Part shown: piece by piece, positions 43,073 to 58,307 of the stretch
Layout of the letters: each line of letters opens with the position of its first letter
Position numbering within the stretch: the stretch's first letter is position 1
From: Escherichia phage UPEC01
Reading direction: 5' to 3' (one strand)
Sequence record: MW233709
DNA length: 64,000 nt
Notes under the pieces: generated by a model
What the model saw: the letters and a program-made list of their open reading frames with translations, nothing else
The model's database searches: none
What the model was told of the DNA's origin: nothing
Translations under genes and position numbers: made by a program

Positions 43073-45133
43073 ATGTCTGAACAATTAAATGAACTCTTTG
43101 ACAAATATATCGAAGCCTTCGGTTATCCTGTCATTAATATGAACCCAAAATACAAGGTCCCACAGGTTTGGCAATTCGGTGTTCCTGGGACAAATTCTCT
43201 TATGGCTCGTTTGATGCAATTCACGGGCAAAGAAACGGTTAAACAATATAAACGCGGTGATGCGATTGCCGAGGTATTTCTGTTATCCGGGACTTCACAT
43301 GGCCATGCTATTCCTCTGAAGGGTGGTCTAGGTGAAAAACCTCTTGACGCGATTAACCTGATTTTTGTTACAGTCTGGGAAAGCATTAAACTAGGTAAAC
43401 CTGATGTAGTCTTGTTCCGTTTCCCATCCAAAAAGATGAAAGGACAAGACCAAGCTGTTATTCGTATTATGAATCGACTGATTCAAATGAAAACCAGCGG
43501 ACGTTATCATGTTCTTCCGAATGCTTCTGGCCTCGGTAAAAAGAACGCTTATGTAATTATGTACAAAAAGGGTGTTGACCTGCTTTCGGTTGATGGTATG
43601 CCACCAGTCCCTGAGAAATATCAAAAAGTTGAAACTAAAGTTGGCGATGTATTCACCAATAAAGATACAGGCGCGCAAGTCTCCAAACAAGAAATCGCAG
43701 CCGAAGTTCTGATTAACGCAGCAAACAAAAAGACCGACGCAGCTGTTGCCCAGAAAACTAAAATCAGTCGCCGAGCTATTGCACAAGCCCAGTACGCACC
43801 AAGTGATTCCGTGCCAGAAGGTTGGGACGAAATTGATGCAGAAGCTGCTAAGTTTAGTCGACCGGCTACGGCAGAACTTATCGATGATTATGAAGAACTG
43901 GAAATTTTTGTTCGACCTTCCGAAACGAATACTATGGCTCGTATGCGCGCCGCGGATACGGCTATGCGAGCAAATGGTGTTTGGAAAGAAGAAATTCGTG
44001 TTGAAGACTCTGACCCAATTTTTAACCGTATGCATCGTGAACTTAAACGTGCCCCAGTTGGTAGCATGAAGCAGATGCAGATTTTTGCCGAATCATGCGC
44101 AGAGATTCTTAACCTTCGCAAAGCCGCATTTATCGAAAGAAAAATGAATGATGCTCCTCCTAACCTGGATGCAGCCACTTATGCAGCCTCGCTCTGGGAA
44201 AAAGAATACACAAGCGCCATTCGTGTTGCAGTTAAAGACTTTGCCGAAGAAGCATCAGAAAATACTCTTAATTTCACAGCAGGGTATACTGACAACCGTT
44301 TCCATTATGGCCAGCGAGAAGCAATTGCAGATTATTGTGGAGCAAACTATGCCGATATTAATAATTATTTGATGGGCAAATATTATGAAGAAGAAGCTGA
44401 ATTCCTAAATCTAGACAGAGTTGTCGAAACAATTAAGGAATTGGATTCGGCCTTTGAAATTGGACATAAGTTGCCGCCTAATACAACTCTTTGGCGTGGT
44501 CAATATTTAAATGTTCCTACATTTGATAAAATTAAGCAATCGAAATTATTTTATTTCAGGAACTATGTATCAACGTCGTTTAAACCGATTATCTTTGGTG
44601 GTTGGGTGGCGAACGTTGCTATGGCTGCAGTTCATCAGGACTATCGTGATGGGACATCTTTCCAGGCTGATGACGAAATTGTTTTACCAGATATGCCGGA
44701 TGCACGCCGCGACCACGTAATGATGCATGTTGGTTGGAAAATTTCTGGGGCGGACTTAATTAACGTAATTGTTCCTGGGGAATTGTCAAGCAACCCGTCC
44801 GAGCAGGAAGTTATTCTTCCTCGTGGGACTGTAGTTAAGATTACCAAAATTACTGATGCTTCGTATCAAGGAAACGCGAACGTCAAAATGCTGGAAGCTG
44901 ATATCCAGACTACGGACCAACTGGATGAAAATGCAGTTATCTATGATGGCGATGTGTTGATGGAAACTGGTGAGCTTGTCGTTTATCAGGGCGAGGAAAC
45001 AGAAGAGCCAGTAGAATCTGTTGACTTTGCATCGTTTGCATCCTCTGGTGTAACGAAGAAAGTCAATCAAGGTCTTGGTATTCTTGCTAGTTGTATTAAT
45101 TTGGAAGCTATTCCTCCTAAATTCCTTTCGTAG
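43073..45133 (+). CDS. alt: ADP-ribosyltransferase Alt (virion-injected)
   Basis: 686 aa; ART catalytic triad elements LWRGQ (Arg), YVSTSF (STS), EQEVILP (Glu); N-terminal L-x-E prohead-protease-type site; late promoter upstream; position between 30 and 54. Confidence 0.75.
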   Translation: MSEQLNELFDKYIEAFGYPVINMNPKYKVPQVWQFGVPGTNSLMARLMQFTGKETVKQYKRGDAIAEVFLLSGTSHGHAIPLKGGLGEKPLDAINLIFVTVWESIKLGKPDVVLFRFPSKKMKGQDQAVIRIMNRLIQMKTSGRYHVLPNASGLGKKNAYVIMYKKGVDLLSVDGMPPVPEKYQKVETKVGDVFTNKDTGAQVSKQEIAAEVLINAANKKTDAAVAQKTKISRRAIAQAQYAPSDSVPEGWDEIDAEAAKFSRPATAELIDDYEELEIFVRPSETNTMARMRAADTAMRANGVWKEEIRVEDSDPIFNRMHRELKRAPVGSMKQMQIFAESCAEILNLRKAAFIERKMNDAPPNLDAATYAASLWEKEYTSAIRVAVKDFAEEASENTLNFTAGYTDNRFHYGQREAIADYCGANYADINNYLMGKYYEEEAEFLNLDRVVETIKELDSAFEIGHKLPPNTTLWRGQYLNVPTFDKIKQSKLFYFRNYVSTSFKPIIFGGWVANVAMAAVHQDYRDGTSFQADDEIVLPDMPDARRDHVMMHVGWKISGADLINVIVPGELSSNPSEQEVILPRGTVVKITKITDASYQGNANVKMLEADIQTTDQLDENAVIYDGDVLMETGELVVYQGEETEEPVESVDFASFASSGVTKKVNQGLGILASCINLEAIPPKFLS

Positions 45134-45516: not shown

Positions 45517-46474
45517 ATAATATACGTTGACTTCCACCAGAGACTGTTCTCCCAGAACCAGTGAACGTATTGTACAGACTTGTTAATCCAGATTGAGCAC
45601 CAGACAAGCGGCTCAATCTGGCAACTTCTGAGTTCAAGTTGTTATCTGAACTAATACCAGATACACCTTTAATAACCTTATCTTCCAACCATTCCAATGC
45701 CGCAGCTCTTCCCACCGCACCAGTTGACATAACGCGATAAGCAAAAGTCACATCAAATGTAGCTATCTGATTATCCCCTTCATAACTCAATTCAGGTGCA
45801 GATACACTTACAGGAACACAACCAGTTAACATAACAACCGTATGCGGTAACCCATTACGCGAATGAAGGTTAACCTGAATATCAGCTTCAACGTCTTCAG
45901 GCAAGGCCCTTAGCTGGGTAACTGGGTCCTGTACAGAGTTGACCCAATCGTTAAATGCTCTAAAGTTCCCTGCCTCTGAATCCATTCTAAAGCTCAATAC
46001 CAACGGAGAATATTCTCTCCCGGTTATCTTGATATTTGGTGCATTATGGTTAAGGTCCATTTCGTAGTTCAATGTGTTATCCGGAAGCTTAACAGAGTGA
46101 ACTAATAGACCAGCCGTTGGATAAGCCATATTAAAGAAATCAAGCAGGTAAGTACCAACCTCAAATTCCCCTAGTAACGATTGCACAACACGGTTACTCA
46201 TTGCCCCGATAAGATATTTGCTTATCCCTGATTTGCGAATAAGCTTTTGTGTCCCGGCAGTAACAAGAGTTGTTATCCCCTGAGTTAAGTCACCTTGTGT
46301 TAATCCGAACCAATCTGAGTTAACAGGAAGGTTACTGAATAATGCGCCACCGAACTGGTCCAGAAGATTCTGAGATTTGGAGGAAGGCGTGGTCGCGAAG
46401 ACCACACTAAAAAGGTTATTCCTCTGCAAGTCGATATTAATCGCTTGTGTTTGAAATTCTTGTAAAGTAAACAT
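45515..46474 (-). CDS. 54: baseplate tail tube initiator gp54
   Basis: 319 aa; order 51-27-28-29-48-54 and sizes match T4. Confidence 0.8.
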   Translation of the reverse strand: MFTLQEFQTQAINIDLQRNNLFSVVFATTPSSKSQNLLDQFGGALFSNLPVNSDWFGLTQGDLTQGITTLVTAGTQKLIRKSGISKYLIGAMSNRVVQSLLGEFEVGTYLLDFFNMAYPTAGLLVHSVKLPDNTLNYEMDLNHNAPNIKITGREYSPLVLSFRMDSEAGNFRAFNDWVNSVQDPVTQLRALPEDVEADIQVNLHSRNGLPHTVVMLTGCVPVSVSAPELSYEGDNQIATFDVTFAYRVMSTGAVGRAAALEWLEDKVIKGVSGISSDNNLNSEVARLSRLSGAQSGLTSLYNTFTGSGRTVSGGSQRIL

Positions 46475-47568
46475 TAGAAACCTTCCGCATATAGTGAGCC
46501 ACGGTTAAGCGTAATGATTTCACGGAAAGTGATTTCAAGTACAAAAGTCGATGGCAGGTTAGGAGCAATAGCTAATCCACCGAAATGACCATCCGGAGAT
46601 TTATCGAATCTTATGCTCTGAATCTGACATGGCCCAAATAGCTCCCCACGGCCATCGTACGAGCTTGTATCACCGAAGTTGCGGATATACCAGATAGTAG
46701 GGTTAGAGACCACCAGAACGTTCGTTAGGAAGCTTGTTATCTCTTCACCGAGCAACTTGCCGTCAAAGTTATCGATTGCTTCCTTTTTGAAGGTGGATTT
46801 ATACCATGTATCGATTTTATCTTTCAGCTCGGAAGCAAACGAACTTTTACCGGTTTCCCCATAGGAGTAATAGTTAAAAATCTCGTATATCTTCACTATC
46901 TGGATTAAGTCCTGGGCCGAACGTGGAGTCATTTCCCAGGTGTAAACTTTTGTCCTGTTATCAGGACCAGCATACATGCTTCGCGCGGTTGTGTAAATCT
47001 GTTCGCCGTGGTCGGCCATTACACCATTTGTAACTGATTCGAGGGCGCCGAAAACTGCAGTCGATGCGATGTTACTAAGAATACCTGTAGCTGAGCCGCC
47101 ACCTTTCGTAATAAGAGATTCACCAACATCGTTGAATCGGTGCGATACGGATTCTACATCAGACTTCGAACGAGGCAACAGGATATTTGCAACAGCGTTT
47201 GAATCAAAACTTTTACCTGTTGAGCCAGCGCCGGTTAATTTCGATTTAGCAAAAGATGTTAAACTTTTAACCGGGTTAAATGAAGCACCATTGGAAACTT
47301 TCTTTAATGAAGTCAATTGGCTTGACCTGTCTGAGCGTAATTCCGGAGATGTTCTTGAACTGAAATTGTATGCCGTGAATAACAGACCATTTTTATAAAG
47401 GTCATTAACTCGCATATCATCTGAAGAATCATTACCGGAAGCTCGTTCTGCTGGATATTGCGCCACAATAGTAGCTTGAGTCTGGGCAGCTTTTGACTGC
47501 CCAGCGGAGGTCTTAGAACCTCCGTTAAATAAACCCGCAATATCAATATCGAGTTCTTTTACTTTCAT
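46474..47568 (-). CDS. 48: baseplate tail tube cap gp48
   Basis: 364 aa, identical size to T4 gp48; synteny. Confidence 0.8.
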   Translation of the reverse strand: MKVKELDIDIAGLFNGGSKTSAGQSKAAQTQATIVAQYPAERASGNDSSDDMRVNDLYKNGLLFTAYNFSSRTSPELRSDRSSQLTSLKKVSNGASFNPVKSLTSFAKSKLTGAGSTGKSFDSNAVANILLPRSKSDVESVSHRFNDVGESLITKGGGSATGILSNIASTAVFGALESVTNGVMADHGEQIYTTARSMYAGPDNRTKVYTWEMTPRSAQDLIQIVKIYEIFNYYSYGETGKSSFASELKDKIDTWYKSTFKKEAIDNFDGKLLGEEITSFLTNVLVVSNPTIWYIRNFGDTSSYDGRGELFGPCQIQSIRFDKSPDGHFGGLAIAPNLPSTFVLEITFREIITLNRGSLYAEGF

Positions 47569-47576
47569 GTTATTCC

Positions 47577-49322
47577 TTAGTTAATTCTCGTGGCCTGTCT
47601 CATGCCAGGGGCAGGGGTTGAACTTTGAGGAGGCATATTGTATTGCGTCCTGGAAGTCTTCTGAATATTATTGACCGTGTTAATTTGTGCCTGAGCTGGT
47701 ACATCCTTGTATTTATTTTCTTTGGCCTTCATGCCTTCGTCAACCTTCGCAGCTTGTTGTGCATCCGGAGAAGTCTTAACATCCGGCGGTTTAACTTTCG
47801 GTTCGTCTTTGAACTTCTCGAGAGACTTATCAAGTTTTTCCAACAGGGCGCGCATATTCAGGTCTTTCGGAGCCCCACCTTTTGCCATAGCTGGGTCAGC
47901 TAATTGTTTTTCAATTTTAGCTCTCATTTCCATCGCATTCTTTTTATCGGTTGCGTCTGGCTTCATTAGGTTGTCAGCAGTTTGGGTCAAACGAATAATA
48001 TCAGCCTGTGCTTTGTCACGCTTCTTGAAATAGTCCAGACGTTCTTCTTCTGGAAGGTCTCTGAAGCTTGTGTCAATACCACCCGCGCGAAGCTGGTCAG
48101 CTTGTTCCTTGGTAAGGTTACCATATTTTTCGGCTTGATTAATTAGTTCAGGTTTATCCTTATACTTCTTATTCATCTTCTCTGCAGCTTCCATTGCTTC
48201 GGCCGAACGTTTGTCATGATATTTTGCTATCTTGGTTTGGTCTTCATCATCCAGAGTTGCCCCTGTATTTTGCTGATAAGACATCAAAGCTGAGGCTTCC
48301 ACATTATCTGCTAAATCGCCCATCCCAGGGATTTTGCTTAAGATAGCTGAAATCAGTTTCGAAATACCAAGCATAAGAAGTTGAGCCATGTTCTTCGTTA
48401 AGTTGACCATTCCGCGAATAATCGCTTCGGCTAATCCTAACCAGTTCCTTTCACTAAACATCGCTTCGGCGTTCTTAGCCCAAGTCATTAGTCCTTCAAG
48501 CAACGGTCCCCATTCTTTGAACTTATCATTAAATTCGGCCCAGCCTTTTTCGAATTGCTTCATGAAATATTGGAAGTAAACTCGTATTGCATCGATACCG
48601 AATACCAACAACAATAATCCACCAATAAGCTTGGCTGCTTCGGCTGCTGCCGTAATTGTATATTTGAATAGCATCCCGGAGATTCGGTCAGCTACAGAAA
48701 TCGATGCCTTAAATCCTTTTTCGGTTATCTTCGAAAGGGTATCAAGCTTATCACCAAGTGACCAGGTATTAGTCTCTTTACCTTCTGCATCGTTTTTTGG
48801 CTGTTCTGGTTCCGGAATGAAGTCTGCATCGGGCTTTTTTTCTTCTGGCGGTATGAGCGCTGGAACGCTCGCTGTGGGCTTATTCTCTTCAGGCTCTGGT
48901 AGTGCATCCTCCACAGGTTTAAGGCTTTCAGAACCAGCCACAGGAGACGTGACGCCTATTTTACCGCTTATCATTGCACTGAGTTTGTCGAGCTTATCCG
49001 AGAGAATATCCGTGAGGTTTTTAATCCCTTGTTGAGTCTTCTCGGTGGCTTCGGCCGTTAGTTCGACCCCAGCACTGATATCCTGGAGGACCCCATTGTT
49101 GGTCTGGATATTCTCAATAATCTGATTACCCTTATCCTCAATAGCTTCCGATACAAGTTCGGTTGCAGCTTGAGTATTTGTAAGAGTTGTATTCAGATTC
49201 GATAATTCATCATTCTGTTCAGCAGAGAGGGCTTCCGCCCTCCTTTGTGGTGCTAATTCTTCGATAAGCTTTTTATTAGGTCCACCGCGTCTGAAGCTCG
49301 TTTGTTCGGAGTTTTTATTCAT
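47577..49322 (-). CDS. 29: tail length tape-measure protein gp29
   Basis: 581 aa, extended helical, Ala/Lys/Glu-rich; T4 gp29 590 aa; synteny. Confidence 0.75.
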   Translation of the reverse strand: MNKNSEQTSFRRGGPNKKLIEELAPQRRAEALSAEQNDELSNLNTTLTNTQAATELVSEAIEDKGNQIIENIQTNNGVLQDISAGVELTAEATEKTQQGIKNLTDILSDKLDKLSAMISGKIGVTSPVAGSESLKPVEDALPEPEENKPTASVPALIPPEEKKPDADFIPEPEQPKNDAEGKETNTWSLGDKLDTLSKITEKGFKASISVADRISGMLFKYTITAAAEAAKLIGGLLLLVFGIDAIRVYFQYFMKQFEKGWAEFNDKFKEWGPLLEGLMTWAKNAEAMFSERNWLGLAEAIIRGMVNLTKNMAQLLMLGISKLISAILSKIPGMGDLADNVEASALMSYQQNTGATLDDEDQTKIAKYHDKRSAEAMEAAEKMNKKYKDKPELINQAEKYGNLTKEQADQLRAGGIDTSFRDLPEEERLDYFKKRDKAQADIIRLTQTADNLMKPDATDKKNAMEMRAKIEKQLADPAMAKGGAPKDLNMRALLEKLDKSLEKFKDEPKVKPPDVKTSPDAQQAAKVDEGMKAKENKYKDVPAQAQINTVNNIQKTSRTQYNMPPQSSTPAPGMRQATRIN

Positions 49323-49833
49323 TTAGGAGTTCCATTATTTTCAGTAACCCCTTAACAGGACCATTCGGGCCCGGGATTGCTAATGTGCTTGTTATATCGT
49401 CTGCCCACTTAGCAACAAAAGCAGGCATATCCAGAAAGTCTGGAACATCTTCCCCGAGATAAAGGGTCTCCAGGAGATTGTCAACTGGTCCGAATTCTTC
49501 ATACGGTTTATTGGAGCGGAATTTAAATGTCTTTCCTTGATAAGAGAATTCAAGGCGCTGACAGATATAAACATCATCCAGCTTATATGTAAACCCATCA
49601 ATCTCACGTTTGTCTTTTAGCTTACCATTAAATTCCAGAAGATGTAAAGATACAAAGTCGGATTCGGCTGCTGTAAGATTAGGGAATATCGATTGCATAA
49701 TCTTTCTTAATGCAACATAAGGATTAGGTTCGTTTTTAATCAGATTGTGATGCTTGAGTCCAAGCTTGGGAACGTGAATCTCTTTATCACCCAGCTGTAT
49801 TTTCTTCGTCGGCAGAATCAGTTTTAAGTTCAT
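49315..49833 (-). CDS. 28: baseplate hub distal subunit gp28
   Basis: Start at ATG 49833 with GAAGG RBS (172 aa; T4 gp28 177 aa); overlaps 3-prime end of gene 27. Confidence 0.6.
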
Positions 49834-50956
49834 TTTTAACCTTCGGTGGTTCTTCAACTTCGATAGGCTTACCATTGGTAAACATATAGAGGTTTGTAAT
49901 TGATGTATTGTTACTCACTTCATGAATAACTTCGTCTACGTAAAAATCATATTTGAATTGGTTCTTAGGGTCAAAGAAATTTATCTTATCACCCGGGGTC
50001 AGTTCAAAGTTCCCGTATGTTTTGCAATGTGCGTAACCGTCATATTGTGACATGGTTATTAATCGCTGAGCTTCCTCGAAACCATTTCGGTATGTGTAAT
50101 CTGCATAGCCCCCGGAACGAGATACCAGAATACTGTTTTGTCCTTCCCCAAAAGTTATTCTGGTTGCGTTCTTATCAAGGAATGAATGCGCATACACGGT
50201 TGCGTTTTCATATGGTTTTCTTGTATGTTGGTTCGCCTTTGTTAACCATTCAAAATCGAAGGCTAAAGGAGTAGTCAGGTTTTGTACAAATTGCCCAACC
50301 AATCGAGGTTCCCCCACCACAAAATTAATTGGCTCTTGTGATGTTAGCCATTCATAATCCTGGATACTTATTCCATCAATATCTTCCCATACAAAAACAA
50401 ATTTATCAGTTTCTACCGACAGGCCAACTTCCCTTATGAATTCCATATATTGGTTCATCGAATCACACCATGGAACGTTAGGAGCATAAACGTTTATGCC
50501 GTTTATTGGTGGGGAAAGTAATGGTCTATCTTGATAAATTACCCCGGTCATTTCGACTAATGTTTCCTGTACGCTCGGGTAAAACATACGACTAAATTTC
50601 AAGTCTTCAATTTCGTGAATAGGAGCCAGCTGAATTGTAATTATGTTATCACCCTTTGAATCCACGGAAACAGCAAAGTGTTTACTTCCATATATTCTGG
50701 ATTGGGTTCGGTCGGAGTTAGCATTCTTAACAGAAATCTGAATAACCTGTTCACCATTCATTTTTGTATGCAGGTTTTTCGTATCATAGAATTGCAAGAG
50801 CCCCTCGTTTCTTCCATAAAGGGAATCACGCATGGTTAACGTTGTAAAGGTGGCAGCTAGTTCCACAAAACGGTGTTCAAGCCATGCATCATAATCTTCG
50901 TAAAGGCGGATGCTGATATTAGGAAAGCCTTCACGCTGCATAGATTTAACTGTCAT
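49787..50956 (-). CDS. 27: baseplate hub subunit gp27
   Basis: 389 aa; [44 protein letters not shown] matches T4 gp27. Confidence 0.8.
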
Positions 50957-51705
50957 TTTTTCAAGTCCTTCTCAACTAGTGATAAAGCAATACCTCGTTC
51001 AATAGGAATCATATGCATGATGCTATCTAGCGAATATTGATTCTTTACCAGCAAGTGGTTAATTTGATAAAATATAAAGACTTCATCCGGGTTAAGGATA
51101 AGCTTAAAGACGTCAAGCAGGTCAGTATATTCGGTTTTGTGCTTTTCACAACAGCCATATGTAAATGGAAGATAAACCGAATGCATTTTCTTAAGGAGTG
51201 CTTCGAGGCTCTCTATATCAATTGCATCGATAACCTGCATCTTTGTTTCTTCAGGGAGGTCTTCCCAATTGTATTTTTGTTCCGAGTCTTCGACGGTCTG
51301 GATGGTATTCAATACAAGCTCTGACTTATCTTTATATTCCACTTCAGGGAACTTAAACTGTATTTTTATCCCGGCGGTTTCCATCGTTGGATTTACTAAT
51401 GGACCCTGATTCATGTTAAACAAAGTCTGCTTTGTCTTTTTACATTTTTGACATTCAAACGCTACCGGGACTTTTGTCTTACCGATAGAGGAAGTGAATA
51501 CCTTCAGGAATATGTAAGGCCTCCATGCTTTTGGATATTCTCCAAAATAATCTTCCAACAGTTCGTCTAATAATTGTTTTTGTTCTTCGACGGGTTTGTT
51601 GTTCATGTCGTTTCGCACAAGCAGTAAATCACGGTAATCAGCGACTGTAAACGGTTTGAAACGATGAACTCCGTCTGGCATTTCACATCTTACGATATTG
51701 GCCAT
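50953..51705 (-). CDS. 51: baseplate hub assembly catalyst gp51
   Basis: 250 aa (T4 gp51 249 aa); synteny; late promoter upstream. Confidence 0.7.
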
Positions 51706-51729
51706 AGAATCCCCTTTTATCTTTATTGA

Positions 51730-51741
51730 TATTTATAAATA
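51730..51741. promoter_or_regulatory. overlapping divergent late promoters (genes 51 and 26)
   Basis: Palindrome TATTTATAAATA gives TATAAATA on both strands between divergent genes 51 and 26. Confidence 0.6.
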
Positions 51742-51758
51742 CAGTAAAGGAGCAAATT

Positions 51759-52382
51759 ATGACTTATGAATTTATTGTCCAAATTAAAAATAAAACTATA
51801 AATTGTAGGGCTTTTACCTTGCGCGAATACAAAGATTTGCTTCAGGCAAAATTAGAAAAGCGTATGGAACCTGCAATAATTGAACTGCTTAATAAATGCA
51901 CTGATGCTAAAGGGCTAAACAAACAGGAAGCCGAGCTGCTTCTTATTAATCTCTGGGCAAATAGTCTCGGAGCTGTTAACGTCGAGCATACATGGGTATG
52001 TGAGTGCGGAAAGGAACAAGATATTCCTGTGACTATAAGTCGCGCAAACATCGTGGATGAGTCTGAAGTTATTCGTGATTTCGGGGCGTTTAAAATTAAA
52101 TTCCGTTATCCTGGGCTATTTGAAGACGGTGATAAAGGAAAAATGATTGCTTGCTGTATCGAATATATTATCACGGAAGGCGGTGAGCGCATCGTTGTTG
52201 ATGACTTAAATGAAGCCGAAATCGAGGACCTGTACAATGCAATTACCCTCGATGATATAAATGCACTAACAGAAGAACTTCTCAAGCCACAGGTCCAAAT
52301 GGCTATTCCTATCTCTTGCGAGTGTGGAGCACATTCTGTCCATGTAATTAAGGGGCTTAAAGAATTCTTTAAGTTTATGTAA
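51759..52382 (+). CDS. 26: baseplate hub subunit gp26
   Basis: ATG at 51759 after AAAGGAG RBS (207 aa; T4 gp26 208 aa); divergent from gene 51. Confidence 0.7.
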   Translation: MTYEFIVQIKNKTINCRAFTLREYKDLLQAKLEKRMEPAIIELLNKCTDAKGLNKQEAELLLINLWANSLGAVNVEHTWVCECGKEQDIPVTISRANIVDESEVIRDFGAFKIKFRYPGLFEDGDKGKMIACCIEYIITEGGERIVVDDLNEAEIEDLYNAITLDDINALTEELLKPQVQMAIPISCECGAHSVHVIKGLKEFFKFM

Positions 52383-52772
52383 ATGAATATAAACAAAATG
52401 TATAGCGATGTGTCTCCCGACTTATCTACAAGTTGGGATAAAGACGTTGCTAAAGTAACCGGTGCAAGGTCTGTTAAGAACAGTCTTCTGGGAATAATCA
52501 CCACAAGAAAAGGGTCAAGGCCTTTTATGCCTGAATTTGGATGTGATATAAGTAATCAGCTTTTTGAGAATATCACTCCATTAATCACAGATACCATTAA
52601 ACGCAACATCGTCTCCGCTGTGCGGAACTTTGAACCAAGGATAAGCAATCTACAGGTTGCAGTTGTCCCTATGTATGATGATAACTCCATTATCGTAACG
52701 GTTCAGTTCAGCATTGTTGATGACCCTGATACCCTCGAACAAATCAGGATTCAGCTAAGTCAAAACGGTTAA
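52383..52772 (+). CDS. 25: baseplate wedge subunit gp25
   Basis: 129 aa (T4 gp25 132 aa); synteny. Confidence 0.75.
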   Translation: MNINKMYSDVSPDLSTSWDKDVAKVTGARSVKNSLLGIITTRKGSRPFMPEFGCDISNQLFENITPLITDTIKRNIVSAVRNFEPRISNLQVAVVPMYDDNSIIVTVQFSIVDDPDTLEQIRIQLSQNG

Positions 52773-52797
52773 TGCTTTAATTTTATGGCTGTATAAT
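52773..52797 (+). promoter_or_regulatory. middle promoter candidate upstream of uvsY
   Basis: TGCTTTA box, 14 bp, TATAAT followed by GGTTCTAGACCC...GGATAC. Confidence 0.55.
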
Positions 52798-52825
52798 GGT
52801 TCTAGACCCTTACATTGGATACATT

Positions 52826-53260
52826 ATGAAAACAGAGATTGAATATAAGTTGGAAGTCTTTCAGGACGAGTTAGATGCAGATTTAAAAATTGATGGTACA
52901 CAACTTCAATATGAAACACAAAACAACGTTTTGTTGCATAGCAAATGGTTGAGATTGTATACCAACTGCAAGAAAGAAATAATGCGTCTTGAGATTCAGA
53001 AGAAAACTGCACTGAAAAAACGACTAGACCATTATACGGGAAGGGGTGACCCAGGGGAAGAAGTATGCATGGATGTGTACGAGAAGTCAGAATTGAAAAC
53101 AGTCATGGCCGCAGATTCAAGCGTGTTGAAGATTGATACTTCAATTCAATATTGGGCACTGCTCCAGGACTTCTGTAGCGCTGCATTAGATGGTGTTAAG
53201 TCACGAAGTTTCGCACTTAAACATATGTTAGAAATAAGACAATTTGAGGCGGGCAAGTAA
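52826..53260 (+). CDS. uvsY: recombination mediator UvsY
   Basis: ATG 52826; LQYE..NNV.L.SKWL, RLE.QKK.ALK.RLD.Y.GRGD, SLQYW..L.DFCS.ALD..KSR.FA.KH....R.FEAGK match T4 UvsY. Confidence 0.9.
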   Translation: MKTEIEYKLEVFQDELDADLKIDGTQLQYETQNNVLLHSKWLRLYTNCKKEIMRLEIQKKTALKKRLDHYTGRGDPGEEVCMDVYEKSELKTVMAADSSVLKIDTSIQYWALLQDFCSAALDGVKSRSFALKHMLEIRQFEAGK

Positions 53261-53493
53261 TGCGATATTCTATCGACGATGCGTTTAACCAAGACGAAGA
53301 GTTCGAAGAAGAAATTAAGTATATGATGAAGGAATGGAAATTGAATCGTGCAGATATTCGTATCTGCGCTGACCACCCTTGTGGTGAAGATGTTATCTAT
53401 GTTAAAGGTAAATTTGCGGGATACATCGATGATGCGTTCTATTCTCACAATATGGGAATAGATACTGGTATGAGATACTTTAAGGAAAATTAA
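53260..53493 (+). CDS. hypothetical protein (77 aa)
   Basis: ATGA-coupled to uvsY. Confidence 0.45.
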   Translation: MRYSIDDAFNQDEEFEEEIKYMMKEWKLNRADIRICADHPCGEDVIYVKGKFAGYIDDAFYSHNMGIDTGMRYFKEN

Positions 53494-53604
53494 ATGAAAA
53501 ATATTAGTAAGATTCTCGACGAGATGGTTATCTCTGCAAACCGAATAACCGAAATTGTTAATGAGATGAAAGCTCGTGCTGCTATTATGAAGAGCACTAA
53601 ATAG
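53494..53604 (+). CDS. small hypothetical protein (36 aa)
   Basis: TAAATG adjacency to upstream stop; very short. Confidence 0.25.
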   Translation: MKNISKILDEMVISANRITEIVNEMKARAAIMKSTK

Positions 53605-53632
53605 ATATGTAAGTTTAACTGAGGAGACAATC

Positions 53633-53800
53633 ATGTCAGATAAGATTTGTGTTGTCTGTAAAACTCCAATCGATTCTGCATTGGTTGTGGATACAGACCA
53701 AGGTCCGGTGCATCCGGGCGCCTGTTATAATTATGTTCAGAGTTTGCCAGTTACGGAAAATACAGAAGAGCAACTGAACGAGACCCAACTTTTAATTTAG
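53633..53800 (+). CDS. small Cys-containing protein (55 aa)
   Basis: ATG after GAGGAGACAATC RBS; CVVC...C motif; followed by terminator. Confidence 0.35.
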   Translation: MSDKICVVCKTPIDSALVVDTDQGPVHPGACYNYVQSLPVTENTEEQLNETQLLI

Positions 53801-53825
53801 CTAGTGTTGTTAACCATTTTTGGTT

Positions 53826-53855
53826 TTGCCCCTTCCTTTTGGTTGGGGCCTTTTT
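53826..53855 (+). terminator. intrinsic terminator candidate
   Basis: GCCCC...GGGGC stem followed by CTTTTTATTTA. Confidence 0.45.
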
Positions 53856-53857
53856 AT

Positions 53858-54085
53858 TTAGAAATCTTCGTCTTCGTCTTCGTCCATATCCTCAAGCTCG
53901 GCACGTTTACCGGCAAGAGCGTCACGAACACTGATATCATCGGAATCTTTCAGTTCAGCTTCTTTGCTGCGTTTCTTATAATAGCCTTCCAACTCCTTCA
54001 GACCGTCCATGGTCTGACAGGAACCAATCTTAGCCATAAAGCCTTCAATTGATGCTTCGTACATAATTTCTTCGAAGGATTTCAT
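53858..54085 (-). CDS. UvsW.1-like small acidic protein
   Basis: 75 aa with acidic tail DMDEDEDEDF; T4 UvsW.1 is 76 aa and follows uvsW. Confidence 0.5.
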   Translation of the reverse strand: MKSFEEIMYEASIEGFMAKIGSCQTMDGLKELEGYYKKRSKEAELKDSDDISVRDALAGKRAELEDMDEDEDEDF

Positions 54086-54780
54086 TATATTTCCACCTGT
54101 TTAATTAAATTTCTGATTTTATATAAAGAAAGCCCCGTTGCTACAGAAGCTTGCTTCATCGAACCATATTCAATCCCGTTTAAAACCACTTTCTTAGCGG
54201 CAGGATTTTTGGATGGGTCTTTATAACGTTCTTTTGCTTTATCTGAAATTTTCTTTGATGCTTCTGGTGTATGTGATTTACCATACATCCAATTACCTTC
54301 ACCTTTATTTCTTTCGGATATAGCTTGACATTGTGCTTGAGAGTATTTATACGGATTCGCTTTCTTTGTCGCAGATATTTTATCGGCCCAAGTTATTTTG
54401 CGACCCTTTAATAATTGGCTCATATATTCTTTATGTTCTTCAGTATGGTGCTTACCATAAAAAGGATTGCCTTCACCAGTCTGAAGAACTGACATTTGTC
54501 TACGCTCCCATCCATACGATTTATTGAATTGTCGTTGATGTGTTCGAGAGCTCATACCCATAGCAATGACGGCCTTTATAAGACCGTAATGATTGGGATG
54601 AATTTTGGCCAATAATTTATGTGCAATAAAATGTTCTTCCGGAGTAAGGTTGACTCTGTTTTCTTGTGTATCAGGTCCACCCATACATTCTGGAATGATA
54701 TGGTGAGATTCCGTGTATCCAATCGGTTTGGAAGCCTTTCGGCTCCCAATTAAATCATCATATATTTTTTGATAATTCAA
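54085..54780 (-). CDS. HNH homing endonuclease with NUMOD-like repeats
   Basis: 231 aa; HNH core (GYTESHHIIPECMGGPDTQENRVNLTPEEHFIAHKLL) and repeated G-x-GNPFYGK-HT-E motifs; inserted between uvsW and uvsW.1. Confidence 0.85.
   Translation of the reverse strand: MNYQKIYDDLIGSRKASKPIGYTESHHIIPECMGGPDTQENRVNLTPEEHFIAHKLLAKIHPNHYGLIKAVIAMGMSSRTHQRQFNKSYGWERRQMSVLQTGEGNPFYGKHHTEEHKEYMSQLLKGRKITWADKISATKKANPYKYSQAQCQAISERNKGEGNWMYGKSHTPEASKKISDKAKERYKDPSKNPAAKKVVLNGIEYGSMKQASVATGLSLYKIRNLIKQVEI
54089..54107. repeat. 19-bp direct repeat, copy 1
   Basis: Exact match to 54781-54799. Confidence 0.9.
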
Positions 54781-56276
54781 ATTTCCACCTGTTTAATTAC
54801 ATAGTTAAAACGTTCATCAGCATATCGTTGTATACGTTCAAGGCCATGTTTTAGGGCAAAGTTCAAATGAACATATTTCTTTTTAGCATTTGCCGATTTA
54901 GGTTTAACACCCATATCATCAACGATATCAAAAACGTTTGCTTGTGATTTGGATTCATGTTTTCTAAGCACACGACCAATTGTCTGGAGTACAATTACCT
55001 TTGACTTGACCGGGTGAGCGAAAATAATATGATGGAGGTTTTTAACGGAAATCCCCGTTGAGAATACACCATATGAAGCTACAACAATAATTCCCTTTCC
55101 ATTCTCTGCCATGACCTTCAGAGCATTACGAGTTTCGGTATCGACTTCCCCAGAAACATAATACACTTTTTCATGACCAGCTTCCTTAAGCATTTCAAAC
55201 ATCGATTTACCATGCTCGATATTCTTAAACATCAAAAAGACGTTTTCATCTTTTTTAGAAAGCTTGAGTGCAAGGTTTGTTACCCATTTATTTCGGCGTG
55301 CAGCTTTTGTAATTACCTTGATTTCATCCTGATAAGTTTTACCTTTCATTTTAACGGTGAATTCATCAGGGTAACGAAGGAAAATACTATTTATTTTAAG
55401 GTCAGTAACCTGACCATCTTCCATTAATTTAGATGTTGATACTGGTTTAAAGATATCACCAAACAGACCCATATATTGCATAAGGTTGGCTTTGCCATCA
55501 CGGAGTGAACCTGACAGACCAAATTTAAACATGCAATTCGTAAGGCCTTCGATAACCGTCGAAATCGATTTACCTGTAGCCATATGACATTCGTCATTCA
55601 TAAACTGACCGAACTGTTCAAACCATTCTTTAGGTTGTTTTACAGCCGTCTGATAAGTCGATACATAAATCATCGCATCAGAATCGCGTTTAGTCCCGGA
55701 ACGAATACCCAGACAAGCTGCACGAGGGAAAAGCCGATAATCAACAAAGTCATTAATCATCTGGTCAACAAGGGCCGTTGTAGGAACAAGGATAAGTACC
55801 TTGCCTTCATAGTTCTCGAGATAATATCGCGCCAGAAGCGCCTGGATGAGGCTTTTACCTGCAGACGTAGGTAAGTTCAGAATCTTTCTTCTGTTGACCA
55901 GACCATCATATACGGCGTCAGATTGATACCAATGGGGCGTTATCTTGGTATTGCCTGAATAGATTTCTTTTGACTCGACCCATTTGTCGAATTCTTCGCG
56001 AGAGATTTCTTCTTTCTCGGTGATTTGCGGGTCAATCCAGAATGAATAACCAAACTGGTCAGCGAACTTTTTAATTTGATTAACCAAACCGTATGGTAAT
56101 TTACGATTGTAATCCAGGAGGCGGATTCGTCCGTCCCAAACTCCCTGCTTGAACTTTGGATTGAAGCGATAGTTTTCAGCTTCGAAGCTGAAGTAATCAC
56201 GGAGTTCGTAGAAGATTCCATCTTCACATTCAACATGCACGTGACTAAAATTTAGAAAGTTGATTTTAATATCCAT
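54777..56276 (-). CDS. uvsW: DNA helicase UvsW
   Basis: Start at MDIKINF (ATG 56276) matching T4 UvsW N-terminus; helicase motifs LNLPTSAGKS, DECH; late promoter at 56305-56312. Confidence 0.9.
   Translation of the reverse strand: MDIKINFLNFSHVHVECEDGIFYELRDYFSFEAENYRFNPKFKQGVWDGRIRLLDYNRKLPYGLVNQIKKFADQFGYSFWIDPQITEKEEISREEFDKWVESKEIYSGNTKITPHWYQSDAVYDGLVNRRKILNLPTSAGKSLIQALLARYYLENYEGKVLILVPTTALVDQMINDFVDYRLFPRAACLGIRSGTKRDSDAMIYVSTYQTAVKQPKEWFEQFGQFMNDECHMATGKSISTVIEGLTNCMFKFGLSGSLRDGKANLMQYMGLFGDIFKPVSTSKLMEDGQVTDLKINSIFLRYPDEFTVKMKGKTYQDEIKVITKAARRNKWVTNLALKLSKKDENVFLMFKNIEHGKSMFEMLKEAGHEKVYYVSGEVDTETRNALKVMAENGKGIIVVASYGVFSTGISVKNLHHIIFAHPVKSKVIVLQTIGRVLRKHESKSQANVFDIVDDMGVKPKSANAKKKYVHLNFALKHGLERIQRYADERFNYVIKQVEI
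54781..54799. repeat. 19-bp direct repeat, copy 2
   Basis: Exact match to 54089-54107. Confidence 0.9.
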
Positions 56277-56304
56277 GATGATTCCAAGGTAATAAATATA
56301 TCTA

Positions 56305-56312
56305 TATTTATA
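56305..56312 (-). promoter_or_regulatory. late promoter for uvsW
   Basis: TATAAATA on - strand 29 nt upstream of ATG 56276. Confidence 0.55.
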
Positions 56313-56330
56313 CACTAACCGAGGTTCATC

Positions 56331-56996
56331 ATGATTGACAAGAACTACATTGAGGAAATTCGTGTCCTCGAGAAAAAAGAAGCCAAAGAAAAATTAGCCG
56401 AATACGCAGCATCACTTGGTGTTGATGTTAAGAAAACAAAAACCTTTGATAATATGTTGGCCGACCTGGAAGCAGGACTTAAAGCATTTGCTGACATGCC
56501 TATGCCTGATGATAATGAAGGCCTGAGCATCACTGACCTTATCGACGCCGATGATGAATTGTCAGGTGCTAAATTTGATGGCGACGAGTCAGCTAAAGAA
56601 GAAGCTAAACTCTTATTTGATGCTCCAACCGAAGCAAAGGTTGAAGTTGTTGAAATCGAAGAACCAGTTGTTGTGGTTGAAGAAGATGTTCCTTTTGTCG
56701 AAGAAAAGTTCGAAGCGGCTGTTGCTAAGGTTATCGAATCTGAAAAACCTGTATTTGCTCTGCCAAAAAACTTTAGCCCGAATTTAATGCTTATTGGTAA
56801 GAACCCTGGATTCTGTACTGTTCCATGGTGGATTTATCAGTGGATTGCCGAGACTCCAGATTGGAAAGAACGTCCAACTGCTTTCCCACATCCCACCGCG
56901 CACCAAACTCTATTCAGTTTGATTTATTACATCAATCGTAATGGGTCTGTTCTAGTACGAGAAACTCGTAACTCATCTTTTGTCACTTTAAAATAA
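56331..56996 (+). CDS. inh: prohead protease inhibitor Inh-like
   Basis: 221 aa acidic protein between uvsW and hoc (T4 Inh 226 aa); positional. Confidence 0.55.
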   Translation: MIDKNYIEEIRVLEKKEAKEKLAEYAASLGVDVKKTKTFDNMLADLEAGLKAFADMPMPDDNEGLSITDLIDADDELSGAKFDGDESAKEEAKLLFDAPTEAKVEVVEIEEPVVVVEEDVPFVEEKFEAAVAKVIESEKPVFALPKNFSPNLMLIGKNPGFCTVPWWIYQWIAETPDWKERPTAFPHPTAHQTLFSLIYYINRNGSVLVRETRNSSFVTLK

Positions 56997-57005
56997 GGGT
57001 TTATT

Positions 57006-58139
57006 ATGGCTTATACCGTAACTATTGCTCCTTTGGCGGCTACGGCCGTTATTGGAGCAACAACCAATTTCACTGCGACCGGTTCCGGTGCTGCAGCTGA
57101 AGGTACCGAATCATTTGTCTGGACCGTTGATGGCGTTCCTCAATCTTCTGTGACTGCTGCAATGGATTATGTTGCTGTTGGTCCAGCAGGCAGTAAGACT
57201 ATTAAAGTTGTTGCAACAACTACACCAGCGGACGGCGAACCAGAAACAGCTGAAGCCGAAACAACTTTAACTATCCAGAATAAAACAATGCCTGCTATTA
57301 CATTGACTTTAGACCCGGCCTCTGTTACTAAAGAAGTGGGGCAATCTCAAGTTGTTACTGCTAACGTGACAGGCGCTCCTTCTGGTGCAACAATCGCTTA
57401 TGTTTGGAAACGAAATGCCGACGTAATCGCAGGTCAAACTGGTAAAACTATTACCGTCACCGAATCAGCAGAAGCAAATTATACATTGAACTGTGAAGTT
57501 ACTGTTTCTGCACCCGATTATAATAATGGCACCGCATCTAAAGGAGCTGCGGTAACTTTTGTTAAGAAAACTATGTCGGGTGTTTCTGTTACTTTAGCAC
57601 CAACCTCTATTAATGTTCCTGAAGGAACTCCGGCTTCATTTAAAGCAGATGTAGTTGGCGCACCGAGTGGAGCTACTTTTGCCTATTCTTGGAAGAAAGA
57701 CGGTTCTCCTGTAGTTGGCACCACGGATACTTTAGCAATCGATACAAGCGCCGAAGGTTCCCAGTTAATTGAAGTTTCTGTTGTTGTATCTGCTACAGAT
57801 TATAATCCTGTTACAGTTACCAAAACCGGTAATGTAACAGTCACGGCTAAAGTCGCACCAGTTCCAGAGGGTGAACTACCTTACGTTCATCCGCTGCCAG
57901 TTCGTAATTCAGCTTATATCTGGTGTGGTTGGTGGGTTATGGATGAAATTCAGAAAATGACTCTTGCTGGACAAGACTGGAAAACCGATGACCCAGATAG
58001 CCCGTATTATTTGCACCGATATACACTTCAAAAAATGATTACCGACTATCCAGAGGTTGATGTACAGGAATCTCGTAATGGTCGAATTATTCATCGCACC
58101 GCTTTAGAAACTGGTATTATATACGATTACGTTTATTAA
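57006..58139 (+). CDS. hoc: highly immunogenic outer capsid protein Hoc
   Basis: 377 aa; Ig-like repeats and C-terminal capsid-binding block (YNPVTVTKTGNVTVTAKVAP.PEGELPYVHPLP...AYIWCGWWVMDEIQKMT) near-identical to T4 Hoc. Confidence 0.9.
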   Translation: MAYTVTIAPLAATAVIGATTNFTATGSGAAAEGTESFVWTVDGVPQSSVTAAMDYVAVGPAGSKTIKVVATTTPADGEPETAEAETTLTIQNKTMPAITLTLDPASVTKEVGQSQVVTANVTGAPSGATIAYVWKRNADVIAGQTGKTITVTESAEANYTLNCEVTVSAPDYNNGTASKGAAVTFVKKTMSGVSVTLAPTSINVPEGTPASFKADVVGAPSGATFAYSWKKDGSPVVGTTDTLAIDTSAEGSQLIEVSVVVSATDYNPVTVTKTGNVTVTAKVAPVPEGELPYVHPLPVRNSAYIWCGWWVMDEIQKMTLAGQDWKTDDPDSPYYLHRYTLQKMITDYPEVDVQESRNGRIIHRTALETGIIYDYVY

Positions 58140-58172: not shown

Positions 58173-58307
58173 TGGTACTGAGCAAACGTTGTCTGGACCC
58201 TTTCTCCAGTGAGTCTTTGTGGTCATACCATAACAATTGTTCATCTGACATAAAACTCCTGTTTACAAGTTAAAAATTCCATGTTAAGATAGCTTCACTA
58301 ACTCAAC

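Follow-up and report, generated by a model that had tools for sequence, protein, structure and literature searches.

Escherichia phage UPEC01 carries, at the junction between its recombination helicase gene uvsW and the adjacent gene uvsW.1, what is very probably a recently acquired mobile gene. We analysed a 64,000-nucleotide stretch of this genome (sequence record MW233709; hereafter the window, whose coordinates are used throughout) and read the open reading frame (ORF) at 54085-54780 on the minus strand, with high confidence on sequence evidence, as a free-standing, Mob-like HNH homing endonuclease gene that is embedded in the 3′ end of uvsW and was gained very recently. This confidence covers the favoured reading as a whole, which rests on the anatomy of the locus, the family of the encoded protein, the polymorphism of the site, selection on the gene, its linkage to a diverged uvsW tract and a comparison of near-isogenic genomes; from these we infer nuclease activity, the position of the cut, the direction of the latest event and the regulation of the gene.

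Three minus-strand genes follow one another here with overlapping ends. uvsW (54777-56276) encodes 499 amino acids from an ATG (MDIKINF), matches Pfam UvsW_N, ResIII and Helicase_C, has orthologues called at 497-499 amino acids, and ends in ...NYVIKQVEI-TGA with the stop at 54777. The endonuclease ORF (231 amino acids) opens with a TTG at 54780 that overlaps the uvsW TGA as ATTTGA, and closes with ...NLIKQVEI-TAA at 54085, where the TAA shares bases with the ATG of uvsW.1 as TAATG. uvsW.1 itself (53858-54085) encodes 75 amino acids and matches Pfam UvsW-1 (E 4.5e-24). An initial annotation of this DNA had placed a 231-amino-acid HNH ORF between uvsW and uvsW.1, where T4 has no gene, and had seen both uvsW and this ORF end in the same IKQVEI-stop; the ORF list, the Pfam calls of both neighbours, the empty T4 site and the two reading frames bear this out. 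The same annotation had drawn attention to an exact 19-bp direct repeat, ATTTCCACCTGTTTAATTA, and this 19-mer does occur in exactly two copies in the window, at 54089-54107 and 54781-54799, with no third copy anywhere in the 64 kb when up to two mismatches were tolerated (expectation 0 from 100 shuffles). Identity between the copies breaks at both borders (T at 54088 against A at 54780; A at 54108 against C at 54800). The upstream copy (54781-54799) supplies the last uvsW codons, a surrogate tail encoding IKQVEI, and a Shine-Dalgarno-like AGGTGGA 4 nt before the endonuclease TTG, and the downstream copy (54089-54107) is the resident uvsW tail, which now forms the final endonuclease codons and still provides the Shine-Dalgarno sequence and TAATG coupling of uvsW.1. 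With only two copies in 64 kb, the idea that the 19-mer is a common regulatory element was rejected.

The initial annotation had proposed a search against homing endonuclease families, and profile and sequence searches place the encoded protein among them. The protein matches PHROG 655, labelled 'homing endonuclease', at E 5.6e-57, and tblastn aligned it with MobE of Aeh1 (31.9% identity over 95%, E 3e-18), MobE of RB59 (34.4%, E 3e-19) and MobD of RB6 (32.5%, E 3e-16), the Mob matches overall lying at 32-34% identity across 86-95% of the protein (E 1e-16 to 1e-19). The predicted catalytic centre is an HNH (beta-beta-alpha-metal) motif at residues 22-54 (54619-54717, minus strand; YTESHHIIPECMGGPDTQENRVNLTPEEHFIAH), within which E24, H27, P30, C32, G35, N41, E49, H50 and H54 are invariant and H26 nearly so in an alignment of 51 sequences; a PDB sequence search aligned this motif weakly with those of IscB and McrA, as matches to the HNH motif only. 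Pfam NUMOD3, a DNA-binding motif, is detected in two stretches (E 6.7e-19), of which the one with a listed position lies at residues 152-179 (54244-54327, minus strand). Weak matches were also found to TIGR01453, a group I intron endonuclease DNA-binding region (residues 92-227), and to the I-TevI DNA-binding domain. Fold searches with an AlphaFold2 model returned no significant match, I-HmuI, the I-TevI DNA-binding domain and HNH domains ranking among nonspecific ones, and these fold matches were not used as positive evidence. No Rfam intron family was detected in 53500-56500 at E ≤ 1 and the ORF stands between two complete genes, which identifies it as free-standing rather than intron-encoded. 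The ratio of nonsynonymous to synonymous substitution rates (dN/dS) is 0.02-0.14 in every lineage pair of endonuclease orthologues, demonstrating that the protein is kept by strong purifying selection. The TTG start is backed by an ATG or GTG at the equivalent position in P479, YenP8, Roth67 and L087-L089. Two deposited coding sequences, SP18_gp197 (L001 787-1386) and that of pEC-M719-6WT.2 (L085 786-1385), begin instead at an internal ATG (Met33) and encode 199 amino acids, an annotation that omits the catalytic histidines His26 and His27 of the HNH motif; the RefSeq label of the SP18 gene already reads 'homing endonuclease'.

The window represents a Gaprivervirus whose locus is 98.3% identical to that of Shigella phage SP18, and its GenBank relatives present the site in both occupied and empty states. 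Empty-site Gapriverviruses match the flanks and span 1,109 bases against 1,801, exactly 692 fewer. The empty sites of VR7 and TH41 read ...GTAATTAAACAGGTGGAAAT-ATAATGAAA, a single 19-mer followed by the TAATG junction, and their single copy is identical to the downstream copy in the window; SP18, TH40 and pEC-M719-6WT.2, the other SP18-type occupied records read, hold two copies each. The initial annotation had proposed that relatives lacking the HNH gene should carry one 19-mer rather than two, and that the TAATG is the ancestral uvsW/uvsW.1 junction; the two empty genomes read agree on both counts, each having one copy followed by ATAATG in a site exactly 692 bp shorter. Orthologues with 49-97% identity occupy the same site in Gaprivervirus, Dhakavirus, Tequatrovirus, Jiaodavirus, Morganella phage Rgz1 and three metagenomic contigs, share the 4-nt start/stop overlap with uvsW, and in every lineage are found at this single genomic site. 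An IMG/VR protein scan yielded 68 loci, just two of them close relatives and both of these Tequatrovirus-type; the useful sample of relatives was that of GenBank phages.

Comparison of these alleles reveals what the repeat is. In four genera the endonuclease ORF ends in the native uvsW tail of that genus, and uvsW bears a different, surrogate tail. The native tail now ending the endonuclease and the surrogate on uvsW are ATGAAACAGGTGGATTTATGA and ATGAAAGAGGTCCAAATTTGA in Dhakavirus, and (ATG)AAAACAGTTAATTTATAA and ATGAAAGAGGTTAAACTTTGA in Tequatrovirus; Gaprivervirus genomes with a second cassette type, type B, likewise have the native tail at the endonuclease end and GTGAAACATGTGGAACTATGA on uvsW, and Jiaodavirus keeps only AAxCTATGA of the native tail, with a surrogate (ATGAAGACTGTAAATTTATGA) that is synonymous with it. 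The duplicated tail ranges from ~9 to 21 nt across lineages and is diverged or shorter in Dhakavirus, Tequatrovirus, Jiaodavirus and type B. Only in the SP18-type allele do surrogate and resident tails coincide, over 19 nt, and this chance identity is the 19-bp repeat of the initial annotation. The two tails agree in each of the four SP18-type sequences read (the window, SP18, pEC-M719-6WT.2 and TH40), even though up to 6% divergence separates their endonuclease genes. Because the 19-mer is unchanged among alleles with diverged endonucleases and has counterparts in other lineages, it is an inherited feature of the cassette and not a fresh scar. The earlier view of the locus as the footprint of a recent mobile endonuclease insertion thus stands for the mobile HNH element and for a very recent transfer, which a co-conversion tract described below supports, and fails for the 19-mer itself, which is inherited in SP18-type genomes.

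The mobile unit of this architecture has three parts: a donor-type 3′ stretch of uvsW, ~170 nt long in the Gaprivervirus clade; a surrogate uvsW tail whose stop codon shares bases with the start of the endonuclease (as TTGA in the window and ATGA elsewhere); and an endonuclease body that has no stop of its own and reads through the resident uvsW tail to the resident stop and uvsW.1 start. Such a cassette brings a spare uvsW end and borrows the resident end for itself, so that UvsW would stay full length, and through the downstream copy uvsW.1 would keep its native ribosome-binding site and its TAATG coupling.

The evidence for recency comes from Escherichia virus TH41, an empty-site phage to which 25.7 kb of the window is 99.46% identical. 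Window and TH41 differ at 0 positions over 45619-54107 (8,489 nt) and again over 54976-57428 (2,453 nt), and the sole differences within this ~11-kb block are the 692-bp insertion and 34 substitutions, five of which change an amino acid. All 34 fall in a 172-nt tract at the 3′ end of uvsW (54804-54975, minus strand; uvsW −199 to −27 nt). It is this cluster of substitutions beside an insertion in otherwise identical sequence, rather than the 19-mer, that argues for a recent event, and a one-sided tract next to a cassette is what homing would be expected to leave: the gene plus a co-converted donor flank. YenP8 (type B) and TH40 (type A, with an endonuclease of the window's kind) have identical flanks save for the cassette and the last ~240 nt of uvsW, a second natural pair, which shows a cassette swap. 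Tract type also tracks the cassette at the population level, with the window-type tract in five of five type A Gaprivervirus genomes and the TH41-type tract in 17 of 20 empty ones, the remaining three being intermediate (two) or window-type (VR7). Most likely, the window lineage gained its cassette very recently, by transfer from an SP18-like donor into a TH41-like genome. Further mosaic patches are seen elsewhere in the alignment to TH41: ~35 substitutions lie at 43144-44602 (around 43.1-44.6 kb), and divergence starts abruptly at 57429 in a Hoc-like gene (hoc, 57006-58139), reaching 52 mismatches in window positions 58200-58299. These two patches are recombination boundaries unrelated to the cassette.

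The tract also points to where the enzyme may cut. T4 MobE nicks nrdB ~120 nt into the gene neighbouring its own, and mobE-bearing genomes hold protective nrdB polymorphisms, with flanking markers co-converted (PMC2790892). By analogy, we place the probable target of the uvsW-linked enzyme in the last ~60-200 nt of uvsW, with the tract carrying immunity polymorphisms, and predict that both lie within 54804-54975. In a mixed infection, the enzyme would nick or cut the uvsW 3′ region of cassette-less phages, recombinational repair would copy the cassette together with the tract from the cut to the insertion point, and the copied tract would hold the polymorphisms that make cassette-bearing genomes immune. 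Comparisons of occupied with empty genomes in two further genera have the same one-sided form. Tequatrovirus HY03 differs from T4 and EcNP1 by 24-27 and 10 mismatches in the last two 60-nt bins of uvsW, and Jiaodavirus Roth67 differs from 311F and KPV15 by 7-12 mismatches per 40 nt over the last 160 nt of uvsW; in both genera the 200-480 nt directly downstream are essentially identical between occupied and empty genomes. Divergence is thus confined to the uvsW side, and gene flow between occupied and empty genomes seems to be blocked there only. A single alignment column, position 54843 (uvsW −67), separates occupied from empty alleles in each of the four genera compared, and its neighbour 54844 (uvsW −68) does so in two of them; the codon concerned is Gly versus Ala in KH[G/A]L. 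On this alignment, 54843-54844 is a candidate immunity or target position, a lead rather than a result, since nothing else emerged from the four-genus comparison of fixed differences and two positions are too little to call a site. Transfer of the linked tract between genera together with the cassette was rejected, as tracts from different genera share only ~66-82% identity and are no closer to one another than empty alleles are.

Several observations weigh against the account given so far. The Pfam HNH model falls below threshold for the window protein; it is weak for the HY03 and Roth67 orthologues, whereas type B passes the cut-off. No long tail duplication is evident in the most distant lineages (L087-L090), their ORFs stopping just past the last helix, and with Jiaodavirus keeping only ~9 nt, a universal tail duplication was rejected. 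The linked tracts are genus-specific (~66% identity between genera), so that a common target cannot be read from them, and most Gapriverviruses have no variation over the first ~60 nt of uvsW.1, where a short co-conversion would be invisible. Finally, the difference between window and TH41 could equally reflect loss from TH41 through recombination with an empty donor.

The placement of the target within uvsW has a competitor, in which the enzyme recognises the uvsW/uvsW.1 junction itself, the insertion disrupts that site, and the diverged tract is merely hitch-hiking donor sequence. This was the proposal of the initial annotation; cutting at or near the insertion site is common among intron-encoded enzymes, and the near-invariance of the start of uvsW.1 could hide a short, symmetric co-conversion. 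The SP18-type genome, however, retains both the resident tail joined to uvsW.1 (19-mer + ATAATGAAATCC...) and the uvsW end joined to a 19-mer, and only a site spanning more than 19 nt over both sides would be disrupted. In Tequatrovirus and Jiaodavirus, bins of 40-60 nt on the uvsW side show 20-45% divergence across a distance of 120-160 nt, against essential identity downstream, and free-standing T-even enzymes such as MobE act away from their own genes. We give a junction target perhaps a minority chance and favour a target within the uvsW tract.

The direction of the event is open to a second challenge: the window arrangement may be ancestral, and the cassette may have gone from TH41 when recombination with an empty phage exchanged the adjacent tract as well, or through a deletion between the 19-mers and later replacement of the tract. 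Two sequences cannot polarise a change, the TH41-type tract is the common empty haplotype so that donors would be abundant, and VR7 shows that cassette-less genomes with a breakpoint at the 19-mer exist. Against this, endonuclease-stimulated conversion is directional, towards gain (PMC2790892); deletion between the repeats alone would leave a window-type tract, as in VR7, whereas TH41 has the other; and break-induced conversion is more likely than an unassisted double crossover restricted to less than 900 bp of a perfectly identical 11 kb. Loss from TH41 therefore seems unlikely to us, and gain by the window lineage is preferred.

VR7 deserves attention in its own right. This empty genome has its own diverged background on both sides, differing by ~8% along uvsW and by 10 mismatches within the initial 60 nt of uvsW.1, and yet the last ~240 nt of its uvsW are the type A-linked tract (0-4 mismatches per 60 nt), which places a recombination breakpoint at the 19-mer. 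Its state is consistent with precise deletion between the repeats, and is also consistent with a repair event in which, once the tract had been copied, annealing through the upstream 19-mer left the gene behind. The suggestion of the initial annotation that the repeat could allow precise excision thereby finds a breakpoint exactly where repeat-mediated loss would leave one, in a genome that is compatible with excision and stops short of proving it. In the empty Tequatrovirus Escherichia phage OES_C-1 (L012), the last ~140 nt of uvsW combine HY03-type tract sequence in the distal half with T4-type sequence in the proximal half and tail; such a mosaic could stem from an earlier loss of the cassette or from conversion of part of the tract. 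Going further, and tentatively, the cassette, the ~170-nt uvsW tract and the duplicated tail may form a self-contained nuclease-plus-immunity module that resides in coding sequence without intron or intein and uses the 19-nt repeat as a recombination switch; we regard this as speculative and rather improbable. Were it true, the repeat would allow precise loss of the endonuclease or gene-free conversion of the tract, yielding immune empty alleles such as that of VR7, and would thereby shape a cycle of gain, loss and immunity that drives allele replacement at the C-terminus of an essential recombination helicase.

Another explanation concerns what the gene is for: the protein might be a domesticated nuclease or DNA-binding protein, no longer mobile, that serves the phage in excluding competitors, in regulation or in some similar role, and ordinary recombination would then account for its patchy distribution. 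Strong purifying selection in all lineages, the long tie to one site with divergence that roughly tracks the phage genera, and the existence of domesticated phage genes derived from homing endonuclease genes (PMC10448857) speak for it. The site, however, is occupied in a minority of genomes in the three genera where counting was possible, with low to intermediate occupancy in each: GenBank Gapriverviruses comprise 20 empty genomes against 4 of type A and 2 of type B, and the gene is present in ~49 of the 500 Tequatrovirus records and in ~13 of 188 records (mostly Klebsiella phages) that match a Roth67 query. Empty, type A and type B states occur in isogenic backgrounds, linked tracts are a signature of active homing, purifying selection is equally expected of a homing gene, and marker exclusion belongs to homing-endonuclease biology rather than offering an alternative to it. 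Domestication thus appears quite improbable, and the gene is better read as a mobile homing endonuclease gene. Type B is itself of note as a second, very different HNH endonuclease (261 amino acids) at the identical site, in P479 (L003 786-1571) and YenP8 (L005 489-1274); the protein passes the Pfam HNH cut-off, lacks NUMOD3 and shares ~35% identity with the window protein. Over its first 33 nt the gene matches type A at ~88% identity, suggesting cassette exchange with a crossover at the 5′ end, and it carries its own ~240-nt linked uvsW tract.

The last explanation, that the 19-bp repeat is a target-site duplication made by a transposition-like insertion, can point to exact direct repeats flanking the 692-bp insertion and to a single copy in the empty site, and was rejected as barely credible: the cassette holds no transposase or integrase, its sole gene being an HNH homing endonuclease, and homing by double-strand-break repair creates no duplications (PMC2988022, PMC2790892); a single genomic site is used in all lineages; the duplicated length is not fixed (~9 to 21 nt) and the copies are diverged in sister lineages; the upstream copy terminates the diverged tract of ~170 nt with which the cassette travels; and the repeat, being common to all SP18-type genomes, is older than the recent event.

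The ORF list extends uvsW to 54777-56315 with a GTG start 13 codons 5′ of the conserved ATG. Within this extension lies a T4 late-promoter consensus, TATAAATA (56305-56312, minus strand), ~30 nt upstream of the uvsW ATG; its position makes the ATG at 56276 the likely start, and it is the probable source of a transcript that also carries the endonuclease gene. No separate endonuclease promoter was evident, sigma-70 promoter and terminator scans giving counts at shuffle background, and the combination of no own promoter with a coupled start fits the Mob and Seg cassettes, which are promoter-less and translationally coupled (PMC2988022). Translation would be weak and coupled, given the TTG start, the short Shine-Dalgarno spacing and a hairpin at the start codon. 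This AU-rich RNA hairpin (hairpin 1; 54750-54780, minus strand; UUGAAUUAUCA / UGAUGAUUUAA) has a 5′ arm that starts with the TTG codon, and is followed by a stable, GNRA-capped hairpin over codons 11-18 (hairpin 2; 54728-54749, minus strand; UUGGGAGCC-GAAA-GGCUUCCAA), the 121-nt region with both hairpins having a folding z-score of −3.7. Hairpin 1 is mostly conserved across 7 alleles with little covariation (RNAalifold). Hairpin 2 was lost in RNAalifold through MAFFT misalignment, and the lineages were therefore folded separately; a hairpin recurs at its position in every lineage, each time from a different primary sequence, with folding energies between −13 and −15 kcal/mol (z from −2.6 to −4.0) in the Dhakavirus, Tequatrovirus and Jiaodavirus alleles. 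No U-tract follows the 5′ hairpin, which is thus not an obvious terminator. A second TATAAATA lies inside the endonuclease ORF (54344-54351, minus strand), 266 nt before its end, and may be an embedded late promoter for uvsW.1. This copy is kept in all Gaprivervirus type A and Dhakavirus alleles, between which synonymous divergence (dS) is ~1 and synonymous sites are saturated, and is absent from the Tequatrovirus, Jiaodavirus and type B alleles.

On the other side of uvsW, an inh-like gene (56331-56996, plus strand) directly adjoins it (window positions 56276-56331), and segE, the GIY-YIG gene that lies between inh and uvsW in T4, is absent from the window. Apparent mis-annotations in related records include a uvsY.-2 homologue labelled 'major capsid protein' in YenP8 (L005 37-204) and ESCO10 (L084 334-501), uvsW labelled 'tail completion protein' in ESCO10 (L084 1481-2398), and uvsW of Roth67 (L009 1-904) labelled 'U3 small nucleolar RNA-associated SSU processome protein 25'.

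With the uvsW-linked gene, the free-standing homing endonucleases of T-even phages gain a well-defined member that has a new target gene end. We found no paper describing an endonuclease at uvsW/uvsW.1, and a review of T4 mobile elements names only segE, at the other end of uvsW (PMC2988022). The near-isogenic empty, type A and type B genomes constitute a ready-made natural experiment in which the target, the immunity tract and repeat-mediated loss are directly testable, and phylogenies should take account of horizontal exchange over the last ~200 nt of uvsW.

Among known systems, the closest are the Mob endonucleases of T-even phages and Aeh1, especially MobE between nrdA and nrdB, in which an N-terminal HNH domain is followed by lineage-specific DNA-binding modules. 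Shared with Mob cassettes are the lack of a promoter, a start overlapping the upstream stop and structured RNA in the 5′ coding region, as well as presence/absence polymorphism, flanking co-conversion and, for MobE, protective polymorphisms in a neighbouring essential gene (PMC2988022, PMC2790892). The window gene differs in its site, uvsW/uvsW.1 not being among the T4 endonuclease sites reviewed (PMC2988022), in its weak TTG start, in a 5′ hairpin with no U-tract, and in a nuclease activity that is predicted from sequence; unlike mobE, it is embedded in the coding end of the upstream gene, supplies a replacement tail and ends in the resident one. SegE of T4, a GIY-YIG enzyme encoded between inh and uvsW, targets uvsW (PMC2988022), which makes uvsW a recurrent homing target in T-even phages, although it belongs to another enzyme family, lies at the opposite end of uvsW and has no counterpart in the window. 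The predicted layout of HNH, NUMOD3 and C-terminal helix-turn-helix may resemble that of the Bacillus phage intron-encoded HNH nicking enzymes I-HmuI and I-HmuII and the I-TevI DNA-binding domain, and I-HmuI and I-HmuII are also two endonucleases that rival for one site (cited in PMC2988022), as types A and B appear to do; the window gene is not intron-encoded, and its similarity to I-HmuI in sequence and fold is below significance.

The tail-swap layout itself has been described previously, in the literature searched, only for fungal mitochondrial mobile ORFs. In Allomyces atp6 and in Glomus atp6, atp9, cox2 and nad3, a foreign C-terminus is inserted in phase, the native C-terminus is duplicated downstream, and the inserted C-terminus is more diverged than the native one (PMC3630166). 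The Dhakavirus, Tequatrovirus, Jiaodavirus and type B cassettes show exactly this tail pattern, a match of architecture only: the fungal elements encode LAGLIDADG or GIY-YIG enzymes in organelles, duplicate tens to hundreds of nucleotides and often leave the native remnant unexpressed, whereas the native tail in the phage cassettes is just 9-19 nt long and serves both to end the endonuclease, as its C-terminus and stop, and to bind ribosomes for the gene that follows. The window locus thus extends the spare-gene-tail design to phages, with the leftover tail put to work as endonuclease stop and as ribosome-binding site of the following gene.

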